This document shows positions 18,988 through 36,772 of a stretch of 64,000 nucleotides of DNA, piece by piece. Below the pieces are notes generated by a model. The model was not told the DNA's origin, did no database searches, and saw only the letters and a list, made by a program, of their open reading frames with translations. A program made the translations under genes and the position numbers. The stretch lies in the NCBI GenBank assembly GCA_030432405.1, contig JAUIHG010000001.1, forward strand, positions 5,908 to 69,907. The letters run 5' to 3'. This DNA comes from Bacteroidia bacterium (GTDB lineage Bacteria > Bacteroidota > Bacteroidia > Chitinophagales > BACL12). Every line of letters begins with the position of its first letter. Within the stretch, counting starts at the first letter, position 1.

Positions 18988-19851
18988 ATGACCCGTGCTG
19001 CATCCTCCCGAACCGACCGCCCCGTGCAGGCCTGGCTTGCCATTGTGGTGATCCCCGTGGCCCTGGTGGCCGCCTGGGCCATCTACCGCTTCATCCTCGG
19101 CAACCCCGCAAACTTTGTGGGTGGAGATCCGGCAGGCGAACCGCTGACGGGCAATTACCTGGGCGTCATCCACAAAGGCGGTCCGATCGTGATTCTTTTG
19201 ATCGCCTTCCAGGTCATTCTGCTCACCTACGTGGTGGAGCGATTTCTGACCATCCGACAGGCCTGGGGCGGCGGCTCGGTGACCGCCTTTTTGGCGCGCA
19301 TCAAACCGCTCATCGAACAGGGGCAACACGCCAAGGCCCTGGAAGCTTGCGACGCACACCGCGGCTCGGTGGCCAGCGTGGTCCGCAACGGCCTGGCCAC
19401 CTACGGGGAACTGGCCGCGGACCCCGGTAAAACGGAAGACGAAAAAGTGCTGCTGCTCCAACATGATTTGGAAGAGGCCACACAGCTCGAACTGCCGCCG
19501 CTGAACAACAACCTGCCGGTGATTGCGACCCTCGCGCAGATCGCCACGCTCATCGGTCTGCTGGGTACGGTCACCGGGATGATCAAGGCCTTTGCGGCCC
19601 TGGCGCGCGTGGGTTCGCCGGACGCCGTAGGCCTGGCCGGCGGCATCAGCCAGGCGCTGGTGACCACGGCGCTCGGCATCTCCACAGCTGCGGTGGCCAT
19701 TGTCTTCCACAACCTCTTTGCCGGGCGGATCGCCAAGATCACCCACGCCATCGACGAGGCCACTTACGCGGTGCTGCACGCCTTCCAGGTGCGCGATGCC
19801 CGCCAGCGCGCCAACACCAAGGCCGATACCAAAGCCCGACCCAACGCATAG
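18988..19851 (+). CDS. exbB: MotA/TolQ/ExbB proton-channel family protein
   Basis: TM helices plus the conserved IATLAQIATLIGLLGTVTGMIKAF and ISQALVTTALGISTAAVAIVFHN. The start is uncertain: ATG 18988 is preferred, with ATG 18967 and 18901 as alternatives. Confidence 0.85.
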   Translation: MTRAASSRTDRPVQAWLAIVVIPVALVAAWAIYRFILGNPANFVGGDPAGEPLTGNYLGVIHKGGPIVILLIAFQVILLTYVVERFLTIRQAWGGGSVTAFLARIKPLIEQGQHAKALEACDAHRGSVASVVRNGLATYGELAADPGKTEDEKVLLLQHDLEEATQLELPPLNNNLPVIATLAQIATLIGLLGTVTGMIKAFAALARVGSPDAVGLAGGISQALVTTALGISTAAVAIVFHNLFAGRIAKITHAIDEATYAVLHAFQVRDARQRANTKADTKARPNA

Positions 19852-19855
19852 CGCC

Positions 19856-20467
19856 ATGGCCCGCTCCGCACAACACGGCTCACCCGTCCTGGACATGAAC
19901 CCCATGGTGGACCTGGCTTTTCTGCTGGTCACCTTCTTCATGCTCACCACCACCTTCCGGATGCCGGAACCGGTGGCCGTGGCCTTGCCGGCCTCAACGG
20001 CCGAAACCAAGCTGCCGGAGCGGGACGTGATCCAGGTGACCGTGGCTCCCGACGGGCGTGTGTTTCTGGACCTGGACGGCAAGCACGTGCGCGAGCGCCT
20101 GTTGATGCGCGTGGGCCGGTCCACGGGGGTGGCCTTTTCGGCTGGGCAGGCCGAAGCCTTCGCCCTGGCCGGAGGCCATGGCATGCCGCTGGACCAACTG
20201 GGTGCCTGGCTGGCGCTGCCTCCTGCGGAGCGCAAGGAGGTGCCCGCCCCCGGCATTCCGGTGGACAGCCTGCGCAACGAACTGGGCACCTGGATCGTGC
20301 AGGCCCGCGCCGAACACCCCGCCTACCGCGTGGCCATCCGCGCCGACGCCGATGTGCCCTACGCGCGCATCAAGGCCGTGACCGGCACCCTGCTCGAGCG
20401 CGGGGTGACCCGCTTCATCCTCATCACCGAAACCGAGCCGGCACCGGCAACCGGTACCGCATCGTGA
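19856..20467 (+). CDS. exbD: Biopolymer transport protein ExbD/TolR
   Basis: I use the internal ATG at 19856. LDMNPMVDLAFLLVTFFMLTTTF is the ExbD TM signature. AIRADADVPYARIKAVTGTLLERGVTRFILITE is the typical C-terminal region. Confidence 0.85.
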   Translation: MARSAQHGSPVLDMNPMVDLAFLLVTFFMLTTTFRMPEPVAVALPASTAETKLPERDVIQVTVAPDGRVFLDLDGKHVRERLLMRVGRSTGVAFSAGQAEAFALAGGHGMPLDQLGAWLALPPAERKEVPAPGIPVDSLRNELGTWIVQARAEHPAYRVAIRADADVPYARIKAVTGTLLERGVTRFILITETEPAPATGTAS

Positions 20468-21036
20468 AACGCGCGGTGGATGGCAACCGTTTCGCCCGTC
20501 CCGGGCGAACACCCCGGGAGGCCCGCGGGGAACAGCTTCCCGTGTCCATCGACATGAACCCGATGGTGGACCTGGCCTTTCTGCTGCTGACCTTTTTCAT
20601 GCTGGCCTCGTCGTTCAACCAGCCCCAGGCCATGGAGCTGGTCCTGCCGCCGCCGCCCGAACCAGACGAAGCCGTTATGGAACAACCGGTCAAGGAATCC
20701 AAAGCGCTGACCCTGGTGTTGGGTGAGGCCGACCGGCTGTATTGGTACCGCGGCATCACCGAACCCGAGGTGCAGGAAAGCACCTACGGTCCCGCAGGAC
20801 TTGAGCGCCTGCTGCGCGAACAACTGGCGGCCACTCCGGATCTGGTGGTGCTGGTCAAGCCACTCGATGCCTCGCGCTACGCCAACCTGGTGGATGTCCT
20901 GGACGACCTTGGGCGTGCCGCGGCACCCCGTTATGCGCTGACGGAAGCTGGGCCGGAGGATCGGCGCCTGATTGAAGCGCTCGCCCGTTCGGGCGAAAAC
21001 AAAAACGGAGAAATCAACAATCAAGCCGCGCCATGA
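20464..21036 (+). CDS. exbD: Biopolymer transport protein ExbD/TolR (second copy)
   Basis: IDMNPMVDLAFLLLTFFMLASSF, then LVVLVKPLDASRYANLVDVLDDL. The GTG start at 20464 overlaps the previous stop codon, and the start is tentative. Confidence 0.8.
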   Translation: MKRAVDGNRFARPGRTPREARGEQLPVSIDMNPMVDLAFLLLTFFMLASSFNQPQAMELVLPPPPEPDEAVMEQPVKESKALTLVLGEADRLYWYRGITEPEVQESTYGPAGLERLLREQLAATPDLVVLVKPLDASRYANLVDVLDDLGRAAAPRYALTEAGPEDRRLIEALARSGENKNGEINNQAAP

Positions 21037-21857
21037 ACCGCCCCGACACCACAACGGGCTGGCTGGCCACCGTTTATTCGGGGAGAAACCGCGCCTATGG
21101 CGGGTACGCGCTACGGCGCGCTGAGACCCGGTATACGCTGCGGGGGTTGGTGGCTGGTTTGGTGCTGGTGGGCCTGATCTTCGGTGTGCCTTTGGGCCTT
21201 TACCACTGGCAGCAGCGCATGGCCGCCCGCGTACCCGCGGAGCAGGTCCGCGTGGTGACCTACCACCAATTGGCCCCACCGCCGCCCATCGAACGGCGCG
21301 AACCTCCTCCCCCGCCACCGGAGAAGCCGGTACCCAAGGCCAAACTGCGCTATGCGCCACCGGTGGTCAAACCCGACGAGGAGGTGCCCGATGATGAATT
21401 GCCGCCCACGGTCGAAGAATTGGCCCTGCTGGATCCCGGTCCACAGGCCGAACCGGGCGACTCCGTAGTATGGATCGAGGAACCCGTTGCCGTTGTGGAA
21501 CCGGAACCTGCACCTAAACCGGAACCAGACGCACCGATGAAGCCCTTTGTGATTGCCGAGGTCATGCCCGAATTTCCGGGAGGCATCGACGGGCTCTATG
21601 CACACCTGGCCCGCGAAATCCGCTATCCGGTCGTAGCCATGGAAAACGGCATCCAGGGCAAGGTCTTTGTGCGCTTTGTGGTTCAGGTGGATGGGCGCGT
21701 AACGGACGCGGCCGTCCTGCGCGGCATTGGCGGAGGTTGCGATGAAGAAGCCTTGCGCGTCATCCGCGCCCTGCCACGCTGGACGCCCGGGCGTCAGAAC
21801 GACCGTCCGGTACCAGTGGAGTACACGCTGCCGGTGCGGTTTGTGCTCAAGAAATAA
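21033..21857 (+). CDS. tonB: Energy transducer TonB
   Basis: The start overlaps the exbD stop (ATGA). It has an N-terminal TM helix and a Pro-rich spacer (PPPPIERREPPPPPPEKPVPK). The TonB C-terminal domain reads FPGGIDGLYAHLAREIRYPVVAMENGIQGKVFVRFVV...PVEYTLPVRFVLKK. Confidence 0.85.
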   Translation: MNRPDTTTGWLATVYSGRNRAYGGYALRRAETRYTLRGLVAGLVLVGLIFGVPLGLYHWQQRMAARVPAEQVRVVTYHQLAPPPPIERREPPPPPPEKPVPKAKLRYAPPVVKPDEEVPDDELPPTVEELALLDPGPQAEPGDSVVWIEEPVAVVEPEPAPKPEPDAPMKPFVIAEVMPEFPGGIDGLYAHLAREIRYPVVAMENGIQGKVFVRFVVQVDGRVTDAAVLRGIGGGCDEEALRVIRALPRWTPGRQNDRPVPVEYTLPVRFVLKK

Positions 21858-22322: not shown

Positions 22323-22438
22323 TGGCCCAGTCAATCATCGTTGCCAGAAGTAGAAGTGTTTATCGCCTTCATTCATAACGCTTGGGCTAACCCTTGCTAT
22401 TAACAAGTCTAGGTATTGTTAGCAATCTATCATTCTTC

Positions 22439-22864: not shown

Positions 22865-23008
22865 CTCATCAAAGATGCAGTTTATGAGCGTATGGTTCAT
22901 TATGGTTCTTGTATCACTTTCCTGTCCGTCTGAAACGAACGTTGTACAAGACTGTACACTTGGAGACTAGCACTTTACTCCCATAAACTAGATGCATTGC
23001 TAGCCCAA

Positions 23009-23926
23009 TTATTTTTTGTTCTTTTTCATTGATTGTTTTATCAGGCTCAAAATATATTCCATTTCTTCGTCAGTCCGCACTACAATTTCATAGTCCCCAT
23101 TTCCCCAATGTCCCACAGATGAAACATCTCTCGCTAACTCTTTAGGGTCATCAAGGTCACCCTGGTGTAAATTTAGCCACATTTTCAGAGCGTTCTTTTG
23201 AATGTGAATATCAACTACGTTCGATCCTGATACAAAAGCAATGTACTTTTTCTTGGGTTTTATTTCTAAATCGTCAAAGTTCAGTATAGCATTTTTATAA
23301 GTCTCATAAAGCTCTTTTATGCCTTCAGTTCCTTTTTCAAGATGTTCGTCCTCTGTGTAAACTTTAATTTCTTTAGTCACTTTTTCAATCGCTTCATCTT
23401 GTCGGCTGATTGTTTTTACACTTTCCTGAGCTCCTGAGGTCTTTATATGATTATAATTAATTGTCTGATTGTCGTATTTCCTTATTTCCCAAAGTTCAAT
23501 CGGCAGGTCTTTGAAATTGATTGCTTCTTTTTGATAAGTCGTGAATGAAGGCGAAATAAAAATCACTCTAGATTGCGACCAATCTACGTCATTTCTTTTT
23601 AATGTTTCTTTTGAGTTTTCGTTAAACTCAAGTATGAAGTCCGCTTTGTTATTGAGCATCAAGGAAAGGTAAGCGTATCCTTGGTCGATTACGCTAAAGT
23701 TTTTGTCTCGTTTGTATTCGATAATTACAAAAGTCCCTGCGTCTTTGTCGAACGCTAAAGTGTCGATACGAAATGTTTTCAGACTGAATTCCGACTTCAC
23801 TAAGTCAAGTCCGAAAATGGAATTCAGATTTTTCTCTGTCAGAGATTGAATGTCTTTTTCGAGCTTGAAAGGTTGTTCCTTAATGTTCTCAAGTCGCTCG
23901 TTATGTTCTATTTTAAAAAGAGCCAT
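23009..23926 (-). CDS. PD-(D/E)XK nuclease-like protein (NucS/DUF91-type N-terminal core plus a DUF5655/DUF4268-like C-terminal domain)
   Basis: 305-aa AT-rich ORF with an ATG start. The candidate core is FRIDTLAFDKDAGTFVIIEYKRDKN (D55, E70, K72; nt 23711..23764). It is preceded by EKDIQSLTEKNLNSIFG and followed by IDQGYAYLS. The C-terminal KKYIAFVSGSNVVDIHIQKNALKMWLNL...GDYEIVVRTDEEMEYILSLIKQS resembles DUF5655-type domains. All assignments are by motif memory. Confidence 0.65.
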   Translation of the reverse strand: MALFKIEHNERLENIKEQPFKLEKDIQSLTEKNLNSIFGLDLVKSEFSLKTFRIDTLAFDKDAGTFVIIEYKRDKNFSVIDQGYAYLSLMLNNKADFILEFNENSKETLKRNDVDWSQSRVIFISPSFTTYQKEAINFKDLPIELWEIRKYDNQTINYNHIKTSGAQESVKTISRQDEAIEKVTKEIKVYTEDEHLEKGTEGIKELYETYKNAILNFDDLEIKPKKKYIAFVSGSNVVDIHIQKNALKMWLNLHQGDLDDPKELARDVSSVGHWGNGDYEIVVRTDEEMEYILSLIKQSMKKNKK

Positions 23927-24436
23927 TTAATTACTTCGTGTTGTTTTTCTAATGTGGTCCAACCTGTTGGCTAATTGCACCCAGTGGTGTTTAGTCAACT
24001 TGGGTTTGCAGTGGATTGTTTCGCTTTTTCAACCGGCGTCCTACGGATAGCACTCCTATCAGAATGGTCATAAAGTGGCGGTTCTTCGCATCGGACACTT
24101 AAAAATAGGCCCGCAATCGTGCAATGCATAAGGGGCCACTAGCGGTACTATGGCACAAGGCTTGCAGCTGGACGCCGTGCGCGTACGGCATGCCTTTTGC
24201 CGTGAAAAGCAGGTGCTGCTTGTGAAAAATGGGCGCAAACAGCTCGTGGGCACTAAATGCGGGCGCGCAAAGCCCTCTACACACCACACTATAAGGGCTT
24301 TCCGCGTTCGCCGGGTAGGCGCATGTATGAGAAGGACGGGGAGGCGTACTGTAGTACGTGACCGGTTTGATGAGGAGCCGCGAATTCATTGGCCGCTTTC
24401 GCGGAGCGCCAGCGGGCGCGCTAAGTCCTCCACCTG

Positions 24437-26776
24437 CTACTCGCCCAGCGTATACGTCACACGCAGGGTATAACTCCGCGGCGGATCAATGCGGGCGGGG
24501 CGGATGGCGTATTCGCGGTTCATCACGTTTTTGACGATGCCGGCCACGGTCCAGTGGTCGCCGATGTCCACGCCGGCGCGGAGGTCCCAGATCCAGTCGC
24601 CGCCTTCGCTGCGGGCAGCGCGCCATTCGGCTACGCCGGGCAGGAGCACCTCGAAAATCTGGTCGATGGACTCCATATAGGAGTAGTACTGCACGTTGGT
24701 GCCGAGCAGCAGGATGCCGAACTGGATGTCGCCTTCCGCCTTGAAGGTGTGGCGGTTGCGGTAGGTGAGCACGTTCTCGTCGCTGGAGGTCAGCTCGTTG
24801 ATGTCCTCCGTGAAATCCTGGTACTCGGGGTTAGCCCAGGTATAGCCGCCGCTCAGGTTGATCGGGTTGTCCCCGATGCTTCCCCGACCGGCCAGGCCAA
24901 GTTCCAGGCCGTAGATGCGGGTGTCGCCCACGTTGCGGCTTTGGAAGCCCGTGGACGCAACGGTGGGTTGGAAGAACACAAATTCCATCATGTCCTGGTA
25001 TTGCTGGTAGAAGCCCGCCACGTCCAGGAAGGCATCAAAGCTGCCGATCCGCAGGCCCTGCTTGATGCCGATTTCGGCGTTCCAGCCGGTTTCCGAAACC
25101 AGTCCCGGGTTGGGCAGAATGGCCGGATTCAACAAGCCAGGTTCGCCGCCGCCCAGCGCGGTTTGGATGAACTTCTCGGCGATGGTCGGAAAGCGGTAGC
25201 CTTCGCCCCAGGAGGCCCGGATGTAGGTAAACTCGGCCGCCTGATAGTTCGCGCCCGCGCGAAACACCACCTTCTGCTCCGGCTCGGTAAAGGAGATTTT
25301 GTTGGCTTCCAGCCGGGCGCCAAAAGACAGGTTGAGCTTGTCAAAAAAGCGCTTGTCCAGCTGCACGTAGCCCGCAAAGTTGGAGCCATCCAGCGGGTCG
25401 CCCACCTGCTCAAAACGGCCGTCCACACGCACCGAATCCGCGTACAGGTCCGCTTCCACAGTCACGTAACTGGCCACACCGCCGGTGGTAATGCTGAAAT
25501 CCAGGTCCTCCCAGCGGCGCTGGAACTGGTATTCCCCGTAGTAGAATTTGGAGAAGTTGCCCTGCTGATTGGTGTTGTCGTTGTCCACCTGGTTGTAGCG
25601 CACCTGCACCCGGTGCCGGTTGCCGGCCGGGTCAAAATAGGTCACGAAGGGGTCTATGGTCAGACGGAAGCCCTTGGTGACGGTAGGGCGACCGATGGTC
25701 TCCCAAAAGCGGTAAGAATCTGCGCCCAAGCCGTTCCAAAGGAAGAAGTTGCCGCTTTCGCCCACCTGGGTGTTGATGTTCACGCCCAGCGAAAGCCCGT
25801 CCACGCCCGGTACGCGGTAGCGCGTCAACAGGCTGATGCGGCCGCGGTTGTCAAACTCCCCTTCGCGGAAGCTGTTCTGCTTGAAGTAGTAACCGCCCGC
25901 CGTCAGGTCCAGGTTGCCGAACTTCTTGCGGTAGGCCAGGCTAAGGCCGGTTTCGTAGGGCGGCGCGACGGCGCTGTCGGCCCACCAGGCCTTGTTGCGG
26001 CCCAGGCTGTCCACCCCACCGGCCGGGTTGTTGAATACCGTGCCGAAGGTGCTGGCGCTGAAATAGCCCTTGGTCTTCGGCTCCGCCGAACGCAGGTTGA
26101 TGATGCCGTTGATGGCGCTGGAACCGTAGAGCGCCGACGCCGCGCCCTTGATGATTTCCACCTGGCCGATGTTCTCGATCGGCACGGCGCTCCAGTTGGG
26201 AAAGCCCGCGTCGGCCTGAAGGATGGGCATGTCGTTATAGAGCAGCAGCACCCGCGTGCCGGCCCCATAGCTGTAGCCCGCGCCAGCACGGATGTTGACC
26301 TGCCCGTCGATCACGTTCACGCCAGGCACCCGCTCGATGGCGTCGTCGATCTGCACGGCGTTGATCTGTTCGAGTTGCCGCGGCTGGATGACCTCCATGG
26401 AAACGGTTTCCTCCCCCAGCTTCTTTTCAAAGCGCGAGCCCGTCACCACCACCTGGTTCATCAGGCGCGATTCCTCGCGAATGCTGAAGTTGAGGATGCG
26501 CACTTCGCCGGCCTTGAGCTCCAGCACCTCTTCCACCTTTTCATAGCCCACGTAGGTCACACGGACGCTGGCCGTGCCCGGCTCCAGCTCCAGGCGGTAT
26601 TTGCCGTTCAGGTCCGTGGCTGCGCCCGTGCCCGAGTTGCTTTCCAGGATGTTGACGCCGATCAGCGTTTCGCCGGAGGCGGCATCCGTCACCGTACCGC
26701 TGATCACAGCGTTCTGGGCGTAAAGCGCATGCACGCTCATCGCCACGACAAAGAGGGTCGTGCGGAAAAAATTCAT
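24437..26776 (-). CDS. TonB-dependent receptor with an N-terminal carboxypeptidase-regulatory-like domain
   Basis: I use the internal ATG at 26776 (MNFFRTTLFVVAMSVHALYAQ). The CarboxypepD_reg-like segment is ISGTVTDAASGETLIGVNILESNSGTGAATDLNGKYRLEL. The plug reads VVVTGSR...IDDAIERVPGVNV and IIKGAASALYGSSAINGIINL. The beta-barrel ends ...SYTLRVTYTLGE. Confidence 0.9.
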   Translation of the reverse strand: MNFFRTTLFVVAMSVHALYAQNAVISGTVTDAASGETLIGVNILESNSGTGAATDLNGKYRLELEPGTASVRVTYVGYEKVEEVLELKAGEVRILNFSIREESRLMNQVVVTGSRFEKKLGEETVSMEVIQPRQLEQINAVQIDDAIERVPGVNVIDGQVNIRAGAGYSYGAGTRVLLLYNDMPILQADAGFPNWSAVPIENIGQVEIIKGAASALYGSSAINGIINLRSAEPKTKGYFSASTFGTVFNNPAGGVDSLGRNKAWWADSAVAPPYETGLSLAYRKKFGNLDLTAGGYYFKQNSFREGEFDNRGRISLLTRYRVPGVDGLSLGVNINTQVGESGNFFLWNGLGADSYRFWETIGRPTVTKGFRLTIDPFVTYFDPAGNRHRVQVRYNQVDNDNTNQQGNFSKFYYGEYQFQRRWEDLDFSITTGGVASYVTVEADLYADSVRVDGRFEQVGDPLDGSNFAGYVQLDKRFFDKLNLSFGARLEANKISFTEPEQKVVFRAGANYQAAEFTYIRASWGEGYRFPTIAEKFIQTALGGGEPGLLNPAILPNPGLVSETGWNAEIGIKQGLRIGSFDAFLDVAGFYQQYQDMMEFVFFQPTVASTGFQSRNVGDTRIYGLELGLAGRGSIGDNPINLSGGYTWANPEYQDFTEDINELTSSDENVLTYRNRHTFKAEGDIQFGILLLGTNVQYYSYMESIDQIFEVLLPGVAEWRAARSEGGDWIWDLRAGVDIGDHWTVAGIVKNVMNREYAIRPARIDPPRSYTLRVTYTLGE

Positions 26777-27087
26777 GGATGGCGGTTGAAAACCGGATGC
26801 CTCCGGTAGGGACTCGGGCCGCGGCGGTCCCGGTGTTTCCAAGTGGGCCGGGAGCCGCAGCGCTTGCGGGCGTGTGTTGGTGCGCTCCGCGCGAAGGCTC
26901 CACGGATGGAGATGGGGGTGAGAACAGGGGTGGCCGCCTATCTGCGGCCTGTAGTGCGTGTGGGCTAAGATCGGGCAAGCCGGACCGTTGCTCCAAGTCG
27001 GCTTGTCCCCCTTCCACAGGCTGTGCACAGCCGCTTGTGCATCAAGCGCTTAGACCCGCCTGGACGGGGGCCATTATCTTGCTGGTC

Positions 27088-29214
27088 ATGCGCGCTGTTT
27101 CCGGCTGCAGGCGCCTGCAGCGGCCCATCCATTTCCTGTTGTTCTGGGCCCTTTTGGGCCTTTCCGGCCCGCTGTGCAGGGCTGCGGACGCCGAAATGCC
27201 CGGGCACAGCAGCACGGCGGCGGTCGGGGAATGGCGCGCCTCCGGCGAAGGCCAGTGGCACTGGGGTCCACGCAGCCCGCGCAGCGGCTTCTCCGACCGT
27301 TGGGTGCGTTGGCGCCTGCCCCTCCCGGACTCGGGCTTTGCCGCCGGGCCGGGCACAGTGCTGCAAAGCCCCATCGGCCCCGGTGGACGGTCCACCGCCC
27401 AGCAAAGCCCACACGGGCCCGCCGAAGCCGTGCTGGAAATCGGCAACCCCTTTGTGCCGCACATGGCCCTTGCGCTGTACGACGGCAGTGGCCGGCGCAT
27501 CGACTCCCTGCAGCTGTTCGGCAGCGCCGTGGCATCACCCGTGCGGATGCCGCTGCGGACCCTGGGCGGCCCGCTCGAACGCCGCAGCCCCTCCCCGCTT
27601 TACGTGGTGGAACGGCCCGACCCGCTCTACCAATTGCCCATTGCCTGGAACACCGCAACCGGCGGTTGGGTGGACCTCTGGGTCCGCGGCGACGGCAGCA
27701 ACCGCGTATTTCCCGTCACCCTCTGGAGCCCCGAAAGGCTGGAACACCGCCAGGGCGAACGCCTTGGGGTCATGGCCGCTTTTCTGGCCGTTTTGCTGGC
27801 CGTGCTGGTCTTTGGCGGGCTTTTCTCCACCGTGGTCAGCACCGACTTCGGTTGGCCCTACCTGCTCTGGGTGGCCAGCGGCATGGCCTATCTGGTGGCC
27901 GTTTCCGGCCTGGGCTACGCCTACGCCTATCCCCTGCACTACCACTGGCACGTGCTCTTGCCGGTGCTGTTCGGCAACGCCACGGCCTGGTCCCTGCTGC
28001 TGGTGCTGCAGCGCCTCTACCGCACCCAGCCGCTCTACCCCATCCTCCACCGCGTCTTCGAGCTGACGCGGATTTTGCTGCTCGTTTTTGGCCTGGTCAG
28101 CTTCCTGTTGCCCTGGATGGGCACCGGGGCTACGCGAAGCGTCTATTTAGCCCAGGAGGCTTTGTGGCTGGAGGTTTCGGTGTTGGTGTTTATCGCGCCA
28201 TTGGCCTTCGCCGTACGGCGAAAACACCCGGAATCCCCGCTGCTCTTCCTGGCCCTGGGCCCGTTGGCCGTCGGCGTTGGCATGGAGACCCTGGAGAACA
28301 TGGGCCTGGTGCAATGGGCATTCCGCACGCAGGTGTTGCATTGGATTGGTACGGCCAGTGCGGTGCTGCTTACCGCGCCGATCCTGCTGTTCCGCATGCG
28401 GCGCAAAATCGAAGAGGGCTTCCAATGGGAGGGCGCGGCGCTCTTGCGGCGGCGGCTCGATGCGTTTGTGCTGTTTCAACGGGAGGCGCGTCTGCGCGAA
28501 AACCTGCAACAGGCCATCCAGGAACGGCTCGGGCCGCTGATCCGGGAGGTGGAGGAGGGCTTGGAGCGTTTGCAGGGCGGGGCGGGGGCTTCGCCTGCCG
28601 GCGAACCGCCTTTGCCGGCCGAAGGTGCTGGGTTGACGTCCACCGCTGCAGGGCCTTCACCCGGGGGGGCGGCTTTGCCCACCGCGGCGCTGGACCATGC
28701 CCGGGAGCGGCTGGCTTCGGCCAAGGCCGAACTGCGCGTGATTGCCGAAAACCGCCTGCCCACGGACTTGGTGCGCCAGGACCTGGCTCCGGCCTTGGAG
28801 GGCCTCGCCGAACCGCTGCGGGCCGATGGGGTGGTGGTGGACATCGACCTGACGGGCCTGCCCGGCCGCTGGGATCCCGATCCGATCACCCGCATGGCGC
28901 TCTTCCGCACGGCCCAGGGCCTGTTGAGCAATGTGCTGCAGCATGCCCGGGCCCGGCATTGCTGGCTGGAGCTTTCCGGCACCCACCGCGAGCTGGTGCT
29001 ACGGGTGCGCGACGACGGCATCGGGCTGCCTTCGGCCGGCTGGCCGGATGCATACCAAACGGATGGCAACCCGCCCGAACAACCGCTCATGCCCCGCGGC
29101 CGCGGCATGGACATTTTGCGCCAACGGGTTCAGGCCCTTGGCGGCAGCGTGCACTGGACCGGCGCGGCCGGACAGGGCACCGAATGCGTGGTGCACATTC
29201 CCCTTACCCTCTGA
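27088..29214 (+). CDS. 7TMR-DISM-type sensor histidine-kinase-like protein (HisKA_3/HATPase_c) lacking the phospho-accepting His
   Basis: I use the internal ATG at 27088. It has a signal sequence, a periplasmic domain of about 300 aa and 7 TM helices. The DHp-like helix is REARLRENLQQAIQERL, with Gln where His is expected. The HATPase motifs are LSNVLQHA, VRDDGIGL and GRGMDILRQRVQALGG. Confidence 0.8.
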   Translation: MRAVSGCRRLQRPIHFLLFWALLGLSGPLCRAADAEMPGHSSTAAVGEWRASGEGQWHWGPRSPRSGFSDRWVRWRLPLPDSGFAAGPGTVLQSPIGPGGRSTAQQSPHGPAEAVLEIGNPFVPHMALALYDGSGRRIDSLQLFGSAVASPVRMPLRTLGGPLERRSPSPLYVVERPDPLYQLPIAWNTATGGWVDLWVRGDGSNRVFPVTLWSPERLEHRQGERLGVMAAFLAVLLAVLVFGGLFSTVVSTDFGWPYLLWVASGMAYLVAVSGLGYAYAYPLHYHWHVLLPVLFGNATAWSLLLVLQRLYRTQPLYPILHRVFELTRILLLVFGLVSFLLPWMGTGATRSVYLAQEALWLEVSVLVFIAPLAFAVRRKHPESPLLFLALGPLAVGVGMETLENMGLVQWAFRTQVLHWIGTASAVLLTAPILLFRMRRKIEEGFQWEGAALLRRRLDAFVLFQREARLRENLQQAIQERLGPLIREVEEGLERLQGGAGASPAGEPPLPAEGAGLTSTAAGPSPGGAALPTAALDHARERLASAKAELRVIAENRLPTDLVRQDLAPALEGLAEPLRADGVVVDIDLTGLPGRWDPDPITRMALFRTAQGLLSNVLQHARARHCWLELSGTHRELVLRVRDDGIGLPSAGWPDAYQTDGNPPEQPLMPRGRGMDILRQRVQALGGSVHWTGAAGQGTECVVHIPLTL

Positions 29215-29218
29215 TGGC

Positions 29219-31264
29219 ATGAAGGCGATGCGCCATAAATCTCCATCCACGCACCGTGCTGCCGAGCGGAGTCTTCCGGCCAGTAGGGCTGTGCCTGATG
29301 GAATGCGCGGTTGCACCGGATGGCTGGTGGGCTGTCTTTTGGCGTTGGCCTGTCTGAACGCATGGCCCCTTCATGCGCAAACCGCAAAAGGCTCCGGTAC
29401 ACCATCCGCCGACCCGACCACCGATGGCGCGGTCACGGATTGGGGGCTGTTTGTATTTGGCGGACCGCAGACCAAAGGGCAGGGGGCCATGCGGCACATG
29501 GACCTCGGCGCGTGGACCATTCCAAACGCCGATGGCCAGCACCGGCTCCGCCTCCAAATTCAAAACAACAGCCGCGACAGCGTTCTTGTTTTGGTTTTGC
29601 GCAACCCCTACCTGCAACAGCTGGATGCGGTATGGCAAACGGAAGGCGCAAAGCCCTTCCGGCAACAAACCGGCATAACCGGAGGCTTCCGGCAACGGCC
29701 CGTGGCCACGCCCTTGTTGCGCCTGCGCCTGCCCATCCAACCGGGCGCAACGGGAAGCCTGGACCTGCTGCTCGACAACGGAGGCCTGCGCACGCGCAGC
29801 GTGGTCTCCCTGGAAAGTCCTGCGGCCAGCCAACGGGAGCGGCGGCAGCGCACTGCGGTATTGGCGTTCTACTTGTCCGGTGCAGTATTCACCCTCTTGT
29901 TCGGTTTTTTCATTTTGGCTTTTGTCCGGGCCTACATCCGCTTTTCCTACGGTTTCTTTTTTGCGTCGAGTTTGGGACTGGTGGTGGCCAACCAGGGCAT
30001 CGGCTATGCGCTTTTCTGGCCTTCGGCCGAAGGCTGGCAAGCTTCTGCCGAAGGCGTGCTGATGAATGCCGCTCTGCTGGGCGGTTTGCGTTTCATCCAG
30101 CGTTTTCTCAAACCCGAAAAGCACTTCCGCTGGGCCAGTCCGTTCCTGTTGGCGCTCATGCTGGGCCTGGCGCTTTTTGCGAGTTTGTGGCTTTTTGCAC
30201 CCCATTGGGAGGCGGGAGTCCTTGCGCATTTTCAAAACGCCAACGACGCCTTAATCTTGCTCGGACTGTTGGCCATGGCCGTCCTGCCCTGGGTGCTGTT
30301 TGCACATCAAAAGAACTGGGAAGCGCCCGCGCTATGGCTGTCTTATGGCGTGCTGGCCGGTACGGTGGGGCTGGACAAGGCAGCAGCCCTGGGTTTGGGA
30401 CCGGCCGGTGGTTGGGGGCCCGGTCTGGAGCGCGGACTGTGGGCGGGCATGGTGATCCTGCATTTTGGAACAACCGTTCTGGTTTTGCACCGCATGCGGC
30501 GTGTGGTGCTCAACCAGGCCCGGGCCAAAGCCGACCTGGACACCGCCCGCGTGCGCCTGTTGCGGGGCCTGGTTTTGCAGGAGGAAAGCGAGCGCTTGCG
30601 GATCGGTTCGGATTTGCACGACGAGGCCGGATCGCGCTTTGCCGCCCTCAAAATGCAGCTCAGCGGCCTGGCCTACGACCACGGTCAGGGCGCACAGCAG
30701 CAAGGTCTGGAGCAGGTCATTGATTCCGTGGATGCACTCAGCCACGCCAACCGGCAACTGGCCCACCGCATGCTGGCCGTGAGCCTGGACAAACTGGGCC
30801 TGCAGGATGCCTTGCGGGCCTACCGCCAGCGCCTGCTCGGCGAAGGCCGGCACGTGGTCATGATCGTGGAAGAGGCCGCCCTGCAACACACCGACGAAAC
30901 CGCCGAACGCCTGCTCTACCGCATGGTGCAGGAGGTGGTTGAAGGGCTTTTTCCCGATGTGCCGGAGCTGCGGATGCGCATCGAAAACGCGCCCGGCGAC
31001 ACCCCCGGCACGGGTGCATCAGGCGCCTTATCCGGCAACCGCTCCGGCGGCTGGAAGGACGGCGCTTCCCCGGGCCGGGAATGGCTGCTGACGGCCGAAG
31101 CACAGGAAGAGGAGCAACCGTTGCCTTCGCCGGACCGGAAAGGTCCGGCATACCAGGGCCTTGCCGCCCGCGCGGCGCTGTTCAGCAGCCAGCGCGACCA
31201 TGCCATCGCATGGAAAGGAGGCAAACTGCGCATCTGGCTGCCCAAACGGGTGGGACAGGCGTGA
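29219..31264 (+). CDS. 7TMR-DISM-type sensor histidine kinase paralog with an intact HisKA_3 His box but a degenerate ATP-binding domain
   Basis: The ATG at 29219 lies 4 nt after the upstream stop codon. It has a periplasmic domain and 7 TM helices. The H-box is SERLRIGSDLHDEAGSRFAAL. In the C-terminal region YRMVQEVVEGLF I see neither an N-box Asn nor a DxGxG motif. Confidence 0.75.
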   Translation: MKAMRHKSPSTHRAAERSLPASRAVPDGMRGCTGWLVGCLLALACLNAWPLHAQTAKGSGTPSADPTTDGAVTDWGLFVFGGPQTKGQGAMRHMDLGAWTIPNADGQHRLRLQIQNNSRDSVLVLVLRNPYLQQLDAVWQTEGAKPFRQQTGITGGFRQRPVATPLLRLRLPIQPGATGSLDLLLDNGGLRTRSVVSLESPAASQRERRQRTAVLAFYLSGAVFTLLFGFFILAFVRAYIRFSYGFFFASSLGLVVANQGIGYALFWPSAEGWQASAEGVLMNAALLGGLRFIQRFLKPEKHFRWASPFLLALMLGLALFASLWLFAPHWEAGVLAHFQNANDALILLGLLAMAVLPWVLFAHQKNWEAPALWLSYGVLAGTVGLDKAAALGLGPAGGWGPGLERGLWAGMVILHFGTTVLVLHRMRRVVLNQARAKADLDTARVRLLRGLVLQEESERLRIGSDLHDEAGSRFAALKMQLSGLAYDHGQGAQQQGLEQVIDSVDALSHANRQLAHRMLAVSLDKLGLQDALRAYRQRLLGEGRHVVMIVEEAALQHTDETAERLLYRMVQEVVEGLFPDVPELRMRIENAPGDTPGTGASGALSGNRSGGWKDGASPGREWLLTAEAQEEEQPLPSPDRKGPAYQGLAARAALFSSQRDHAIAWKGGKLRIWLPKRVGQA

Positions 31265-31284
31265 AGCAGCCGGGAACACGAGGC

Positions 31285-31887
31285 TCAGATCAGCCCCCCC
31301 TTGGCCGCCCAACCGATCAGTTCCGCCACGTTTTTGGCGCTGGTTTTGGCCAGCAGGTTTTTGCGGTGGGTGTCGACCGTGTTCTTGGAGATGTAGAGTT
31401 TGCCGGCAATCTCCTGGCTGTTGTAGCCTTCGGCCAACAGCACGAGCACATCTTTTTCCCGCGCGGAAATATCGGGGATGGGCAGGTCGGGTTTGTGGCC
31501 CTGACCGCTGCCCTGGTAAGCCGTTTCGCCGGCGCTCACGCGCTGCAACACATCGAGCAGGCGCTCCTTGGACACGTTTTTGAGCAGGTAGCCGGAGGCC
31601 CCCACTTTTCGGGCGCGCCGGAGCAGGGGCTCCTCGTCGTAATCGGTGAGCATGATGACCTTGAGCTCGGGGCGTTCGGCCAACAGCCGCTCGGTGGCCT
31701 CGATGCCGTTGACCGGGGCCATCTCGATGTCCATCAGGACGATGTCCACCGGCAGGGTGCGGAGCTTGAAGAGGGCTTCCCGGCCATCGGTGGCCGTTCC
31801 GGCAATATTGATGTCGGGTTCGTGCTCCAGCAACATGCTAATCCCGCTGCGGGTCAGCTCCTTGTCGTCAACGATGAATACGCGCAT
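31285..31887 (-). CDS. NarL/LuxR-family response regulator
   Basis: 200 aa. The REC domain reads MRVFIVDDKELTRSG...DIVLMDIEMAPVNG...KVIMLTDY. The LuxR HTH reads ISAREKDVLVLLAEGYNSQEIAGKLYISKNTVDTHRKNLLAK. Confidence 0.9.
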   Translation of the reverse strand: MRVFIVDDKELTRSGISMLLEHEPDINIAGTATDGREALFKLRTLPVDIVLMDIEMAPVNGIEATERLLAERPELKVIMLTDYDEEPLLRRARKVGASGYLLKNVSKERLLDVLQRVSAGETAYQGSGQGHKPDLPIPDISAREKDVLVLLAEGYNSQEIAGKLYISKNTVDTHRKNLLAKTSAKNVAELIGWAAKGGLI

Positions 31888-31968: not shown

Positions 31969-32985
31969 CTAGCGGCCCATCGCCTGGAAGGTGTAGTCCG
32001 ACTTGCGGATGGTGGTGCCGGAGGTGCTGATTTTGGTGGTCACCCAGGAGGTGGTATCCCCGGATTTCTTGTCTACGGCATGCGACTCCATCATGGTACC
32101 CTGCAGGTCGCCGTAGCCCTGGAAAAAGGCCGCGGGCGCATTGGCGCCAAAGCCGCTCATGAAGGCGTCCATCCAGTCGGCAGGCAGTTCCCGGGTCATG
32201 TAGAAGGTGGCCTCGGTATCCTCGTCTTCGCCTTTGTACTCCGAACACTTGTAGCCGGCCACGGTCTTGGTGCGGCCGGTAGCCTTGAAACCATACGCTT
32301 CGTAGTCCTGGCCGGCCTGCTCCATCTGGGCCTGCCCGTATTGGCCGGCCATTTCCATCATGTTGGGGATGGCCATGGCGGTTTTGCTGCCGTCCTCTTC
32401 TTCAGTGAACACGGCCATCAGGCCATTTTCCGAGTCGATGACGCTGGTCTGGTGGCGGTCGGTGCCCTCTTCCTGCATGGCCACGCCAAAACGGTCGCCG
32501 TCCTTGTCGACAAGCAATTCCAGCTGCTGGGGGTCTTCGCCAGTCTGGCGAATTTCCACATGCATGACCATGTCAAAGGTGTAGGTGGCGGGCACCTCGG
32601 CCGATTTGTCCATGTTGCCCATCATCTGCTGCATCATGGCCATTTGCTCCTCGGTCATGCCGCTTTGGCCCGCGCTGCCGCCGGAAGGCATGCTGCTGGA
32701 GCTGCTGCTGCTCCCGGAGGATTGGGAGGCGCCGGAGGAGCTGCCGCTGCTTTGCTGGGAGCCGCCAAACAGGCCGTCCAGCCAGCTGTCCACAGCTTCG
32801 CTGGATTCTTCGGCAACCTTGTCCGATGCACTTTCCGATACGCCCTCGGTGACCTTTTCGGTGGTTTTGTCCGCCGTTTTGTCGATCAGCTTGTCCAGGA
32901 ATCCCTGGCCCTGGGCCGGTTGGATGGAAAAGGCCAAGAACGCCATCATGGCGAAGGCCATCGTGAGTTTGTGTGCGTTGGTCAT
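31969..32985 (-). CDS. Secreted DUF4412-like protein with a Ser/Gly-rich linker
   Basis: I use the internal ATG at 32985 (MTNAHKLTMAFAMMAFLAFSIQPAQG). A low-complexity tract reads SSGSSSGASQSSGSSSSSSS. C-terminal FKATGRTKTVAGYKCSEYKGEDEDTEATFYMTRELP fits the DUF4412 pattern. Confidence 0.6.
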   Translation of the reverse strand: MTNAHKLTMAFAMMAFLAFSIQPAQGQGFLDKLIDKTADKTTEKVTEGVSESASDKVAEESSEAVDSWLDGLFGGSQQSSGSSSGASQSSGSSSSSSSMPSGGSAGQSGMTEEQMAMMQQMMGNMDKSAEVPATYTFDMVMHVEIRQTGEDPQQLELLVDKDGDRFGVAMQEEGTDRHQTSVIDSENGLMAVFTEEEDGSKTAMAIPNMMEMAGQYGQAQMEQAGQDYEAYGFKATGRTKTVAGYKCSEYKGEDEDTEATFYMTRELPADWMDAFMSGFGANAPAAFFQGYGDLQGTMMESHAVDKKSGDTTSWVTTKISTSGTTIRKSDYTFQAMGR

Positions 32986-33120: not shown

Positions 33121-35538
33121 TTATGGCGTTTTTCGATCCAGGCTCCAGCGCAGCCCGATGTAGCCTTCCCGGCCGTGGTTGGGCGCGTAGGCATAGGCCG
33201 TGTCGAAAAAGGGGCTGAAGCCGGGCGGATTGCCAGGGTCGCCCAGGCCGGACAGCGGCGAACCGGGCTGGCGGTAGTTCAGCAGGTTCTGCACGCCACC
33301 GTAGACGGCCAGTCGTTCGCCAAAGCGCTTTTCGATCTGGATGTTGGCCAGCACAAAGGGCTCGGAAACCTGCGCGCGCGGATTGGGCAGCGGGTTGCCG
33401 GCCGCATCGAGGTCGTAGACTTGGGGCAGGGCCATGGGGCCGGTGGCGTTCGCCGTAACGGCGAACGTGATGTCCGGCTTGCGCCAGGTGTAGTTGGCGG
33501 TGAACACGCCGGTCCAGCGGGGCGCAAGCTCGATGTCGCGCAGGGTTCGGGTGCCGGTTTCGTCGACCTCGGCCTCCACCACGCGCTGGGCCTGGAAGCT
33601 GGCCTGGAACCCGAGCGGGAAGTTGAAGCTGTACTGCACGCTCAGTCCGCCGCCGGCGGTGAGCGCGTAGCCGTTGACGTTGCGGTAGTTGATCTCGCCG
33701 ATGGTTTCGTAATCGGTGATCACCTTGTTGGTGAAGTAAGTGCCGAAGCCGTCGATGTCAAAACTGCCCGTGCCCAGGCTGATGTTGAAGAGCTGGTGCA
33801 GGTTCACCGCACCGCTCCAGGAACGCTCGGGTGCGAGGTTTTCGGCAATGACCACCTCGCGCTGGCCGGTGACAAAGGCGTGGTCTTCGGCAAAGAGGTT
33901 CACGATCCGGAAGCCGCTTCCGCCATTCAGGCGAAGGGTGGTCAGGCTGCTCGGGGCGTATTGCACGCTCAGGCGCGGCGACCAGACCAGCCCGTGCCGC
34001 CGGTAATGGTCCATGCGCAGCCCGCCGAGCAGGGTGAGTTTCTCGCTGACCGACCACTCGTCCTGCACAAAGAGCCCGGGGATGAACTGGTTGTCCGGGC
34101 GGTTTTCTGGGGCCGGATCCGGGCCGCCGCCAGATCCCGAACCGCCACCCGCCGGAGTCTCCGTGGCCACGGTATTGTCGTCGTAGTGCTGGCCGCGCAG
34201 GGTGGCGCCGGCCAGGATGCTGTGGTCCCCGAAGGCCTCGTCGTAGATCATGTTGAGGAAGCCCGTGCCTTGCTGTGCCACGTAGCCGTCCGATCCGTAG
34301 TAGCTGTCCTGGTCGTGCCAGGAGGCCGAGTAGTCCAGGCGCAGCGGCAAGGTGGTGTTGAGTTCGTAACGGCCAAAGAGCTCCACGCGTTTGGTGTAGA
34401 TGCTTTCGCCGTACAGGCTGTCGTTTCCGCGGATCTCCCGGTAGGCCCGGTCGGCGAGGTAGTCCTCCAGGCCGTTGCGCCGGTCCTCGTAATAGGCCTT
34501 CGCCGCCAGGCTCCATGCCTTGCCGCTGGGCCGGCCGATTTGCCATTTGCTGAACAGCGAAAGCCGGTCCATGGAAACCGCGTCGCTGAAGCCGTCGTTG
34601 TTGGCGTCGTCAAAGCGGTTGAGGTAGGTCCAGTTCACGCCGATGAAACCGTGCGTATTGCCGATGCGCGGGGCCAGGCCCAGGTTGCCGAAGCTTTCGC
34701 GGTGGGTGGTGCCCATCAGGTCCAGCGAAAACGGCGCCTGCTTTTGCGGGTCCTTGGTGATGATGTTGACCACGCCCGCCACGGCCTCCGAGCCGTAGAG
34801 CGTGCTGTTGGGCCCCTTCATGACCTCGAAGCGGTCGATCATCATGTTCGGAATGCCGTTGAGGCCATACACGTTGGCCAGGCTGCCGTAGATCGGCATG
34901 CCGTCCATCAGCACGGAGGTATAGGGGCCGGGTAGGCCGTTGATGGAGATGCTGTTGGTGAAACACACGCCGCAGGCCACCACTTCCTGCACGCCGTTGA
35001 CCAGGTTGATGCTTTCCACCACGCTTGACGCGGCGGAGGGCAGATAGGTGTTCAACTGTACGTCCGTGATCACCTCGACCTTGACCGGGCTGTCCTTCAG
35101 GTAGCCGTGTTTCATGGTGCCGCTGACCACGACGGTGCTGAGCGCTTCTCCGGGATGGAGGGTCAGGTTGGCGGTGGTGGTTTGCCCGGCTTTTACCGTC
35201 ACCGTTTGCCGTATGCCCTGGTAGCCCACCGCCGTGGCGCGCAGGGTATAGGTCCCTTCTTGCACGCCTTCCAGGCGAAAACGCCCCTCGGCATCGGCGG
35301 CCACCCCATGCGGCGTGCCTTCCAGCAACACATTGGCAAAGGGGATCGGGGCGCTGGTGGAGTCCTCCGGACCGGGGCTTTCGATGCGGCCTTCCAGGGT
35401 GCCTGTTTCCTGGTGTTGCGCCTGGTTTTGCGCCTGTCCTTTCGCGTGGTCTTGCGCCTGCCCGGCGAAGGCCAGGCACAGCGGCAACAGCAGCGCCAGG
35501 AGCGGGCGGAGGTGCAGATGTGGAGTTGATCGGGGCAT
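33121..35538 (-). CDS. TonB-dependent receptor with an N-terminal carboxypeptidase-regulatory-like domain
   Basis: I use the internal ATG at 35538 (MPRSTPHLHLRPLLALLLPLCLAFAGQAQ). The regulatory-like domain is LEGRIESP...FANVLLEGTPHGVAADAEGRFRLEGV. The plug reads VMKGPNSTLYGSEAVAGVVNIITK. The barrel ends YIGLRWSLDRKTP. Confidence 0.9.
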   Translation of the reverse strand: MPRSTPHLHLRPLLALLLPLCLAFAGQAQDHAKGQAQNQAQHQETGTLEGRIESPGPEDSTSAPIPFANVLLEGTPHGVAADAEGRFRLEGVQEGTYTLRATAVGYQGIRQTVTVKAGQTTTANLTLHPGEALSTVVVSGTMKHGYLKDSPVKVEVITDVQLNTYLPSAASSVVESINLVNGVQEVVACGVCFTNSISINGLPGPYTSVLMDGMPIYGSLANVYGLNGIPNMMIDRFEVMKGPNSTLYGSEAVAGVVNIITKDPQKQAPFSLDLMGTTHRESFGNLGLAPRIGNTHGFIGVNWTYLNRFDDANNDGFSDAVSMDRLSLFSKWQIGRPSGKAWSLAAKAYYEDRRNGLEDYLADRAYREIRGNDSLYGESIYTKRVELFGRYELNTTLPLRLDYSASWHDQDSYYGSDGYVAQQGTGFLNMIYDEAFGDHSILAGATLRGQHYDDNTVATETPAGGGSGSGGGPDPAPENRPDNQFIPGLFVQDEWSVSEKLTLLGGLRMDHYRRHGLVWSPRLSVQYAPSSLTTLRLNGGSGFRIVNLFAEDHAFVTGQREVVIAENLAPERSWSGAVNLHQLFNISLGTGSFDIDGFGTYFTNKVITDYETIGEINYRNVNGYALTAGGGLSVQYSFNFPLGFQASFQAQRVVEAEVDETGTRTLRDIELAPRWTGVFTANYTWRKPDITFAVTANATGPMALPQVYDLDAAGNPLPNPRAQVSEPFVLANIQIEKRFGERLAVYGGVQNLLNYRQPGSPLSGLGDPGNPPGFSPFFDTAYAYAPNHGREGYIGLRWSLDRKTP

Positions 35539-35615
35539 GGCGGAGCAGCGGGAGCGTTGGTGCGTCTCGGACATGCGTTCGCCGGATGGCACCGTGTTTA
35601 TGCCGCCAAAGATCG

Positions 35616-35652: not shown

Positions 35653-35970
35653 TTAACGTTTACCCCCTTCTTCGCCCGGTCTGCCGAGCACCCGCACGCG
35701 CTTGACCTTCCGCTTGGGTTTGGTCCTGGCCAGGTGGTGGTTGACCTGCAGGTTCAGCCAGAACTCCGGCGTAGTTCCCAACGCACCCGACAGCATCCAT
35801 GCCTCCGTTGCCGATACCATGCTACGACCCTCCACAATCGACGCTATCCTGTTGGCTGGAAGGTTCAAATGCTTGGCCAAGTCCTTTATTGTCAAAGTCA
35901 AAGGCTCGAGAAATTCGAAAGACAATACTTCTCCTGGGTGTGCCGGGATGCGCTTGGAGTATTGATTCAT
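35653..35970 (-). CDS. higA: HigA-family antitoxin (XRE-type HTH)
   Basis: 105 aa. IPAHPGEVLSFEFLEPLTLTIKDLAKHLNLPANRIASIVEGRSMVSATEAWMLSGALGTTPEFWLNLQ is the canonical HigA/VapI signature. A basic C-terminal tail follows. Confidence 0.85.
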   Translation of the reverse strand: MNQYSKRIPAHPGEVLSFEFLEPLTLTIKDLAKHLNLPANRIASIVEGRSMVSATEAWMLSGALGTTPEFWLNLQVNHHLARTKPKRKVKRVRVLGRPGEEGGKR

Positions 35971-36195
35971 GGATTATCGTAAGAGCTATGAGGTGGATGG
36001 AGTACTTAAGAGCTGCATACTCAGGGATCAGGCCAAAAAAAGCAAGGAATTCGTCATCACTTTTTGAAGCATCAACAAGGAATGCCACAGGGCTAAAAAT
36101 CTGAGTCCAACATTTGAACGTGTACTGAGCTAAAACAGTGAAATTCAAAAGCAATACCGCCATGCAGGTAAAAGCAACTCTTGTCATGGGGGTGT

Positions 36196-36708: not shown

Positions 36709-36772
36709 AATCGGACGGGCGCAGGAAACACCTATGCTCCGCTGAAAAGATACAACGGCGATCAACCGCCCC

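Follow-up and report, generated by a model that had tools for sequence, protein, structure and literature searches.

Two adjacent genes in a 64-kb stretch of DNA from a Bacteroidia bacterium (contig JAUIHG010000001.1, positions 5,908 to 69,907; hereafter the window, numbered from its first nucleotide) encode full-length membrane sensors with complementary defects in their histidine kinase motifs. Gene A (27088..29214, + strand, 708 aa) encodes a protein with an intact catalytic and ATP-binding (CA) domain and no phospho-acceptor histidine, while gene B (29219..31264, + strand, 681 aa) encodes one that keeps this His in its dimerisation and histidine phosphotransfer (DHp) domain, followed by a CA-like domain without the ATP-binding motifs. 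We propose that the two proteins probably form one sensor histidine kinase, in which the ATP-binding domain of A would phosphorylate the His of B in trans. An initial reading of the window made from its letters alone (the sequence-only reading) had suggested that A supplies ATP binding and B the His. This division of labour now appears strongly supported by motif conservation, by the adjacency of the two genes in 10/10 assessable loci, by the coupling of the A stop to the B start and by the sister-paralogy of the pair. We are less sure that A and B associate as a 1:1 heterodimer than that they complement each other functionally.

Complementary motifs in A and B

Protein A comprises a periplasmic domain, a 7TMR-DISM membrane module, a His-less DHp-like hairpin and an intact CA domain. 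Pfam searches returned 7TMR-DISM_7TM (PF07695) at residues 230–430 (27.0 bits, just below the 29-bit cutoff) and HATPase_c at residues 604–707 (43.5 bits); HisKA_3 went unmatched even at E ≤ 1. The hydropathy profile shows seven peaks between residues 228 and 434. Protein B has a DISMED2 periplasmic domain (PF07696, 21.8 bits against a 22-bit cutoff), the 7TMR-DISM module (PF07695, 43.6 bits), a HisKA_3 DHp domain with its His (residues 458–518, 29.5 bits) and a pseudo-CA domain for which Pfam gave no HATPase_c match. PF07696 is clear in the A orthologs P0016–P0018 and in the B orthologs P0010 and P0013; both families thus show the architecture of 7TMR-DISM receptors, an extracellular DISMED-type domain ahead of a 7TMR-DISM_7TM module, with near-cutoff scores in the window proteins. 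The NCBIfam matches fall in the same complementary places, partial and sub-threshold HisKA_3-class kinase models covering only the CA part of A and only the DHp part of B; the kinases matched by the two proteins include MctS, UhpB, LiaS and NarX among others, none above threshold. The profile comparison that the sequence-only reading had advised therefore came out as it expected, with HATPase_c but no HisKA_3 in A and HisKA_3 but no HATPase_c in B. The open reading frame (ORF) coordinates likewise bear out the adjacency it described, the two genes lying 4 nt apart on the same strand. The start of B is ambiguous between 29219 and 29303, and the gene call of the near-identical protein P0004 takes the later one.

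The DHp-like region of A (residues 440–592, 28405..28863, + strand) was delimited by hhalign comparison with the cytoplasmic part of B and by MAFFT alignment with 49 complete kinases. It consists of two long helices flanking a variable Pro/Gly/Ala-rich loop, and the phospho-acceptor His is absent. The sequence-only reading was right that A lacks this His, and its codons for Q474 (CAA, 28507–28509) and for H467 of B (CAC, 30617–30619) were read correctly; the position it gave for the loss was not. In both alignments it is Q478 of A (codon CAG, 28519..28521, + strand) that takes the place of the His, one helical turn (four residues) past Q474, a register in which the invariant G482 of A falls on the Gly of the HDxxG (H-D-x-x-G) motif. 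No His occurs in A at either the Q474 or the Q478 register, and neither the alignment nor the motif census described below finds a conserved His elsewhere in the DHp helix. The sole invariant His among seven divergent A proteins is H619, which lies within the N-box. Across the A family the column at Q478 holds Asp in four proteins, Glu in three and Gln, Ala, Asn and Ser in one each (His 0/11).

The replacing residue is therefore acidic in 7/11 A-type proteins, which recalls the phosphomimetic H188E substitution of DesK used in structural work (PMC5231405). In the second helix, the MAFFT alignment shows the ‘SH’ motif replaced by Ala, Cys, Ser or Tyr and then Glu or Asp. A Gly/Pro/Ala-rich low-complexity insertion in the DHp loop of A (residues ~496–535, 28573–28692) is absent or much shorter in orthologs and is modelled at a predicted local distance difference test (pLDDT) score below 50.

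The CA domain of A (28864..29211, + strand) is intact, as the sequence-only reading had it. It accounts for the HATPase_c match and carries an N-box Asn (N615, 28930–28932), a G1 box (D642–G646, 29011–29025) and a G2 box (G671–G673, 29098–29106), all on the + strand and all with their motif residues present in 11/11 members of the A family.

In B the situation is reversed. The DHp domain (residues 430–548, 30506..30862, + strand) contains the H-box ERLRIGSDLHDEAG, whose H467 is conserved as His in 13/13 members of the B family, and it is the most conserved portion of the protein. The C-terminal domain (residues 549–681, 30863..31261, + strand) retains a CA-like alpha/beta fold without the N, G1 and G2 motifs. 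At the N-box Asn column the B family has Gly in 11 proteins, Asn in one and Glu in one, and at the G1 Asp column it has Val in seven and Ala in six. The retained His box and the degenerate catalytic domain described in the sequence-only reading are thus both upheld. The Gly/Pro/Glu-rich insertion that it also described is present in the window protein (residues ~590–617, 30986–31069), but is found elsewhere only in the 98%-identical twin P0004, and is thus a lineage-specific trait, not a family feature. It sits in the ‘lid’ region of the pseudo-CA domain and is modelled at pLDDT below 50.

We compared the folds of the two cytoplasmic parts using AF2 models and Foldseek. The model of A (residues 437–708, pLDDT 67.5) consists of a long hairpin of helices and, after it, an alpha/beta domain; its best matches are cytoplasmic structures of DesK (E 4.5e-10), with the isolated DesK ATP-binding domain 3ehg matched at a template modelling (TM) score of 0.79. 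The model of B (residues 426–681, pLDDT 73.3) has the same long hairpin, followed by an alpha/beta domain built as a helix/strand sandwich; it matches the cytoplasmic part of DesK, DesKC (E 1.4e-5), and ChpT (4fmt, E 1.8e-3), and its C-terminal domain alone matches the CA domains of DesK (3ehg, TM 0.65) and VraS (4gt8, TM 0.64). At the moderate confidence of these models, the overall DHp plus CA fold is present in both cytoplasmic parts, with DesKC matched over the whole length. A phmmer search of the B cytoplasmic part against PDB sequences gave nothing meaningful, so that for this part only the fold comparison is informative. Taken with their motifs, the models indicate that B joins a His-bearing DHp to a pseudo-CA domain, and A a His-less DHp to a real CA domain.

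Conservation and origin of the pair

Relatives of the pair are rare. Word-indexed homolog searches gave three matches for A and six for B; a profile built from seven A proteins added nothing useful to the A matches, and a metagenome scan with the A alignment returned just distant generic kinases (23–27% identity). An exhaustive search of 1.84 billion representative proteins with a B profile recovered nine B-type clusters at ≥ 393 bits, after which scores fell sharply to 203–171 bits; the next three matches are A-type proteins (7TMR-DISM plus HATPase_c, without HisKA_3), and below these come ordinary complete 7TMR-DISM/HisKA_3/HATPase_c kinases. A further A-type protein identified, P0059, is near-identical to the product of the A gene of locus L005. 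A genome scan contributed four extra loci from Bacteroidota/Chitinophagales metagenome-assembled genomes, and contig look-ups contributed five more loci with DNA (L001, L002 and L021–L023) together with the ERR4592245 contig, for which gene calls only were used.

The resulting motif census comprised 11 A-type proteins, 13 B-type proteins and 49 related complete kinases. The phospho-acceptor His is present in 0/11 A proteins, 13/13 B proteins and 49/49 complete kinases. For the ATP-binding motifs the order is inverted: the N-box Asn is found in 11/11 A proteins, 1/13 B proteins (Gly in 11) and 45/49 complete kinases, and the G1 Asp in 11/11, 0/13 (Val or Ala) and 45/49, respectively. The G1 glycines are kept in 11/11 A proteins and 46/49 complete kinases against 1/13 and 0/13 B proteins, while the G2 glycines are kept in 11/11 A proteins, in 2/13 (first) and 0/13 (second) B proteins and in 41 and 45/49 complete kinases. 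His and ATP motifs do not occur together in any A or B ortholog, some of which are merely 27–40% identical to the window proteins. N, G1 and G2 boxes are essentially absent from the 13 B proteins, and none of the orthologs is an ordinary complete kinase. Complementary defects thus define the A and B families. Since the pattern is repeated in every ortholog examined, it lies far beyond chance. The census leaves one feature uninformative: in the DxxxQ phosphatase motif beside the His, Gln is absent from its column in the related complete kinases too, and the motif says nothing about phosphatase activity.

The pairing is constant too, a point that the sequence-only reading had advised checking in related genomes. 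B directly follows A in 10/10 assessable loci (the window, ERR4592245, L001, L002, L004, L005, L007, L021, L022 and L023), and L021 couples the most divergent A protein (P0017) with the most divergent B protein (P0015). At all junctions examined the A stop and the B start either overlap (TGATG, TAATG or 4 nt) or lie 3–4 nt apart, an arrangement typical of translationally coupled subunits and suggestive of coupling here.

The domains that have lost their motifs are conserved along with the rest. Mean pairwise identities are 32.5% (A) and 30.4% (B) for the periplasmic domain, 37.0% and 42.4% for the seven-transmembrane (7TM) module, 43.4% and 58.8% for the DHp region (His-less in A), and 49.5% and 43.1% for the CA domain (pseudo-CA in B). 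The ‘dead’ domains, that is, the A DHp region at 43.4% and the B pseudo-CA domain at 43.1%, are thus conserved at least as well as the membrane and periplasmic parts (30–42%), which indicates purifying selection and not decay.

The sequence-only reading had also called A and B adjacent paralogs. The relationship holds, as sister paralogs, though BLASTP similarity between them is confined to the membrane part (25% identity, E 2e-11) and the cytoplasmic parts are related at the profile level only (hhalign probability 86%). In a neighbour-joining tree of 73 proteins with 60 bootstrap replicates, A is monophyletic in 60/60 replicates, B in 60/60, and the two form a clade without any complete kinase in 59/60. 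When the columns were divided, this A+B clade was recovered in 58/60 replicates from the N-terminal and membrane columns and in 1/60 from the cytoplasmic columns, which fits cytoplasmic halves that diverged after duplication. A plausible history is that a complete 7TMR-DISM/HisKA_3 kinase was tandemly duplicated and then underwent reciprocal loss, the two cytoplasmic halves diverging fast and in different directions. A would have retained the ATP-binding catalytic domain and dropped the phospho-acceptor His; B would have retained H467 while its catalytic domain became a scaffold that presumably no longer binds nucleotide.

Proposed trans-phosphorylation and its alternatives

Facing the pair lies a gene for a NarL/LuxR-type response regulator of 200 aa (31285..31887, − strand; Response_reg 92 bits, GerE 56 bits), convergent with A and B. 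The sequence-only reading had noted a single regulator of this type converging on the kinases, and the domain matches agree. Its receiver is canonical (D7, D8, D53, T81, K103) and is joined to a GerE helix-turn-helix domain; a regulator occupies the matching position in the window and nine further loci (L001, L002, L003, L005, L006, L007, L021, L023 and ERR4592245). With one regulator in the locus and canonical phospho-acceptor residues in it, the system needs both a kinase that uses ATP and a His to donate the phosphoryl group. B has the only His-box of the locus and no ATP site, and A has all the catalytic motifs and no target of its own, so a kinase made of two polypeptides is the simplest arrangement.

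In the mechanism that we propose, A and B would be made together from the translationally coupled pair and would come together in the inner membrane, most simply as an A:B heterodimer, with one DHp hairpin from each contributing to a four-helix bundle of the usual kind. The CA domain of A would phosphorylate His467 of B in trans, B would hand the phosphoryl group on to Asp53 of the neighbouring NarL-type regulator, and the phosphorylated regulator would control the flanking TonB-dependent uptake genes. The signal and the targets of the regulator are deduced here from gene context alone. For the geometry there is precedent: RetS–GacS is a DHp–DHp heterodimer of two different sensor kinases (PMC8498467), and asymmetry is intrinsic to histidine kinase dimers in their kinase-active state, where only one CA domain is engaged (PMC5231405).

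Several points weigh against this proposal. Another kinase or phosphodonor may be encoded elsewhere in the genome; the ~ten A/B gene pairs are too few for a coevolution analysis; the AF2 models come from shallow alignments of 3–5 sequences and reach only moderate confidence (pLDDT 67–73); and all sequences derive from metagenome assemblies.

A more elaborate version, which we offer tentatively and regard as doubtful when all its parts are taken jointly, is that A and B form a hard-wired asymmetric heterodimer, with A as fixed catalytic donor and B as fixed His acceptor and regulator dock. Evolution would then have fixed a half-of-sites trans geometry that ordinary homodimers take only transiently. 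Two different DISMED-type domains would feed one reaction centre, which might act as a coincidence or ratio detector. By analogy with DesK H188E, the acidic residue at the lost His position in 7/11 A proteins could bias the bundle towards the asymmetric, kinase-competent state.

The main rival keeps the same division of labour and changes the assembly: A and B would each form homodimers within an A2:B2 or larger membrane complex, with phosphorylation between dimers, in the manner of the split CheA3/CheA4 or Mycobacterium tuberculosis HK1/HK2 pairs. Known split kinases do act as complexes of separate proteins and not as DHp heterodimers (PMC3591291), RetS–GacS is possibly a hetero-tetramer or a still larger assembly (PMC8498467), and the DHp-like region of A is conserved enough for self-association. 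However, in a B2 homodimer the dead pseudo-CA domains would occupy both CA places by the His and crowd out the CA domain of A, and sister paralogs with a common membrane module and coupled translation favour direct co-assembly, although this is not decisive. We consider such a complex unlikely.

Less probable still is that B serves as a membrane phosphotransferase or phosphatase of the ChpT/Spo0B type for some kinase encoded elsewhere, with A modulating it allosterically or acting on another substrate. B is laid out like ChpT and Spo0B: the phosphorylatable His sits on a DHp hairpin, and the CA-like alpha/beta domain behind it has given up nucleotide binding. The ChpT match of the B model reflects this layout too. 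ChpT and Spo0B are soluble proteins that receive their phosphate from a receiver Asp within a phosphorelay. B, in contrast, is a 7TM receptor with no intermediate receiver nearby and with an orphan catalytic domain, that of A, encoded beside it. The donor should be a receiver Asp, yet the sole receiver in any of the loci is that of the terminal regulator; a hybrid kinase or an extra receiver domain was found in none of the loci, to which this search was confined. In addition, A has all its catalytic motifs in 11/11 proteins and no His, and must therefore have an external substrate, and the His of B accompanies it in 10/10 loci.

The reading that A and B are decaying duplicates, or products of an assembly or frameshift artefact, leaving no functioning kinase at the locus, is essentially refuted: each gene alone looks defective by standard motif criteria, but uninterrupted ORFs of full length recur with this reciprocal pattern on at least 11 independent contigs, some of them with proteins only 27–40% identical to those of the window, the degenerate domains are conserved like the rest and the surviving motifs are invariant. 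The sequence-only reading had further allowed that one partner might be a regulatory pseudokinase. We disfavour this, as a regulatory partner would need a complete kinase to act on and neither A nor B is one.

The proposed two-polypeptide kinase has relatives among split histidine kinases, namely CheA3/CheA4 of Rhodobacter sphaeroides, Hik36/Hik43 of Synechocystis and HK1/HK2–TcrA of M. tuberculosis, in which two polypeptides must cooperate to phosphorylate one regulator (PMC3591291, PMC7656254, PMC9321153). In SMART, Amin, Porter and Soyer (2013) found 3.66% of HisKA proteins to lack HATPase and counted these as potential split kinases; reciprocal pairs of the A/B sort are undescribed there (PMC3591291). 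The A/B pair resembles these systems in placing the catalytic function and the phospho-acceptor His on two proteins, here as judged by sequence motifs. Split kinases are further marked by a complex of the two proteins that autophosphorylates when they are mixed and not when either is alone; that A and B would behave so has indirect support in their constant adjacency (10/10 loci) and their stop/start coupling. It differs in that characterised split kinases are mostly CheA-type, or fragments that simply do without their partner’s domain, whereas A and B are full-length paralogous transmembrane sensors; both have periplasmic and 7TM modules of their own, and in each the lost domain persists as a degenerate but conserved copy. 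Unlike the known examples, the pair also descends from a single complete kinase. The concept of a split kinase is therefore already established; a paralogous full-length receptor pair with reciprocally degenerate domains would be a new form of it.

Other systems share one feature or another with the pair. RetS of Pseudomonas aeruginosa is a 7TMR-DISM/DISMED2 receptor that is itself no functional kinase (PMC8498467). RetS inhibits the complete kinase GacS, their genes are unlinked and both also homodimerise; in A/B neither partner is complete, the genes are always adjacent and association would be productive instead of inhibitory. Orthodox HisKA_3 kinases (DesK, NarX, LiaS, UhpB and VraS) supply the closest solved structures for both cytoplasmic parts and the best partial NCBIfam matches, and they too have a NarL-type regulator as partner. 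Those kinases unite the His with the N, G1 and G2 motifs in a single chain and work as homodimers; the His is what A lacks, and the three motifs are what B lacks. The pseudo-histidine kinases DivL and RcsD have an inactivated site and work with a real kinase, yet their partners (CckA and RcsC) are catalytically complete, while the defects of A and B are reciprocal and complementary. A limited literature search found no published heterodimeric histidine kinase pair of such a kind, only pseudo-histidine kinase work on DivL and RcsD.

Histidine kinases are textbook homodimers, and cis/trans autophosphorylation, one-site firing and the heterodimerisation of paralogs have hitherto been studied mostly via engineered mutant pairs. 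A natural, conserved pair with complementary defects would be the evolutionary counterpart of such complementation experiments, and would allow trans-phosphorylation, the asymmetry of kinase dimers and the integration of two input signals to be studied in a clean system. The pair would, moreover, exemplify subfunctionalisation that makes two duplicates mutually dependent. For annotation, the case is a warning to treat neighbouring ‘defective’ kinase genes as a single unit.

Genomic neighbourhood

The pair is embedded in a conserved module for TonB-dependent uptake, with the order ExbB/ExbD/TonB, TonB-dependent receptor 1 (TBDR1, − strand), A (+), B (+), regulator (−), DUF4412-like gene (−) and TonB-dependent receptor 2 (TBDR2, −). 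TBDR1 (24437..26776, − strand; CarbopepD_reg_2, Plug and TonB_dep_Rec_b-barrel) is divergent from A and has orthologs upstream of gene A in L001, L002, L004 (as a fragment), L005, L007, L022 and L023. On the other side, a DUF4412-like gene (31969..32985, − strand; Pfam DUF4412, 26.7 bits) lies upstream of the regulator, with orthologs at the matching position in L001, L002, L005 and L007. TBDR2 (33121..35592, − strand; Plug and TonB_dep_Rec_b-barrel) heads the minus-strand run TBDR2–DUF4412–regulator, and has orthologs in L001, L005, L006 and L007. As the DUF4412 and TBDR2 genes vary among loci, the invariant core is TBDR1–A–B–regulator. The DUF4412–TBDR2 pair is missing in L003 and L021, and TBDR2 alone in L002; the same would hold for L023 if an unannotated 209-aa gene there is the DUF4412 ortholog. 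In L002, L003, L021 and L023 an mfd/TRCF gene adjoins the regulator downstream. NCBIfam yielded sub-threshold generic matches only, and no clue to the substrate of TBDR1 or TBDR2.

The genes for the receptor-energising complex are represented in the window by ExbD–ExbD–TonB (19700..21857, + strand; ExbD twice, TonB_C), and in L001 and L002 ExbB–ExbD–ExbD–TonB directly adjoins TBDR1. Between the TonB gene and TBDR1 the window has an island of low guanine-plus-cytosine (GC) content (~22000–24000, 0.39 against ~0.62 around it) that includes a gene for a DUF5655 protein (23009–23926, − strand) and an ORF without a Pfam match (22439–22900, − strand). The island looks like a foreign insertion, because TonB adjoins TBDR1 directly in L001 and L002.

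The divergent intergenic region between TBDR1 and A contains a conserved 14-nt element, GGGCTAAGATCGGG (26962..26975, + strand), which is the sole match at ≤ 2 mismatches in the 64-kb window. In the corresponding intergenic region of four distant loci, GGGCTAATATCGGG is exact and unique (L002 7971–7984, L004 325–338, L005 3908–3921 and L007 3777–3790). The consensus is GGGCTAA(T/G)ATCGGG, and L001 has a looser version. The element may be an operator of the regulator, or else a promoter element. Upstream of gene A in L002 (8030–8198) a ~30-nt unit (gcggccgggtgctgggcggcgtgctga...) is also repeated several times in tandem, a repeat unseen in the other loci. Just past TBDR2 in the window lies a gene for a small HTH_3 (Xre-type) protein (35653–35970, − strand), and a dip in GC content is found nearby (~36000–38000).

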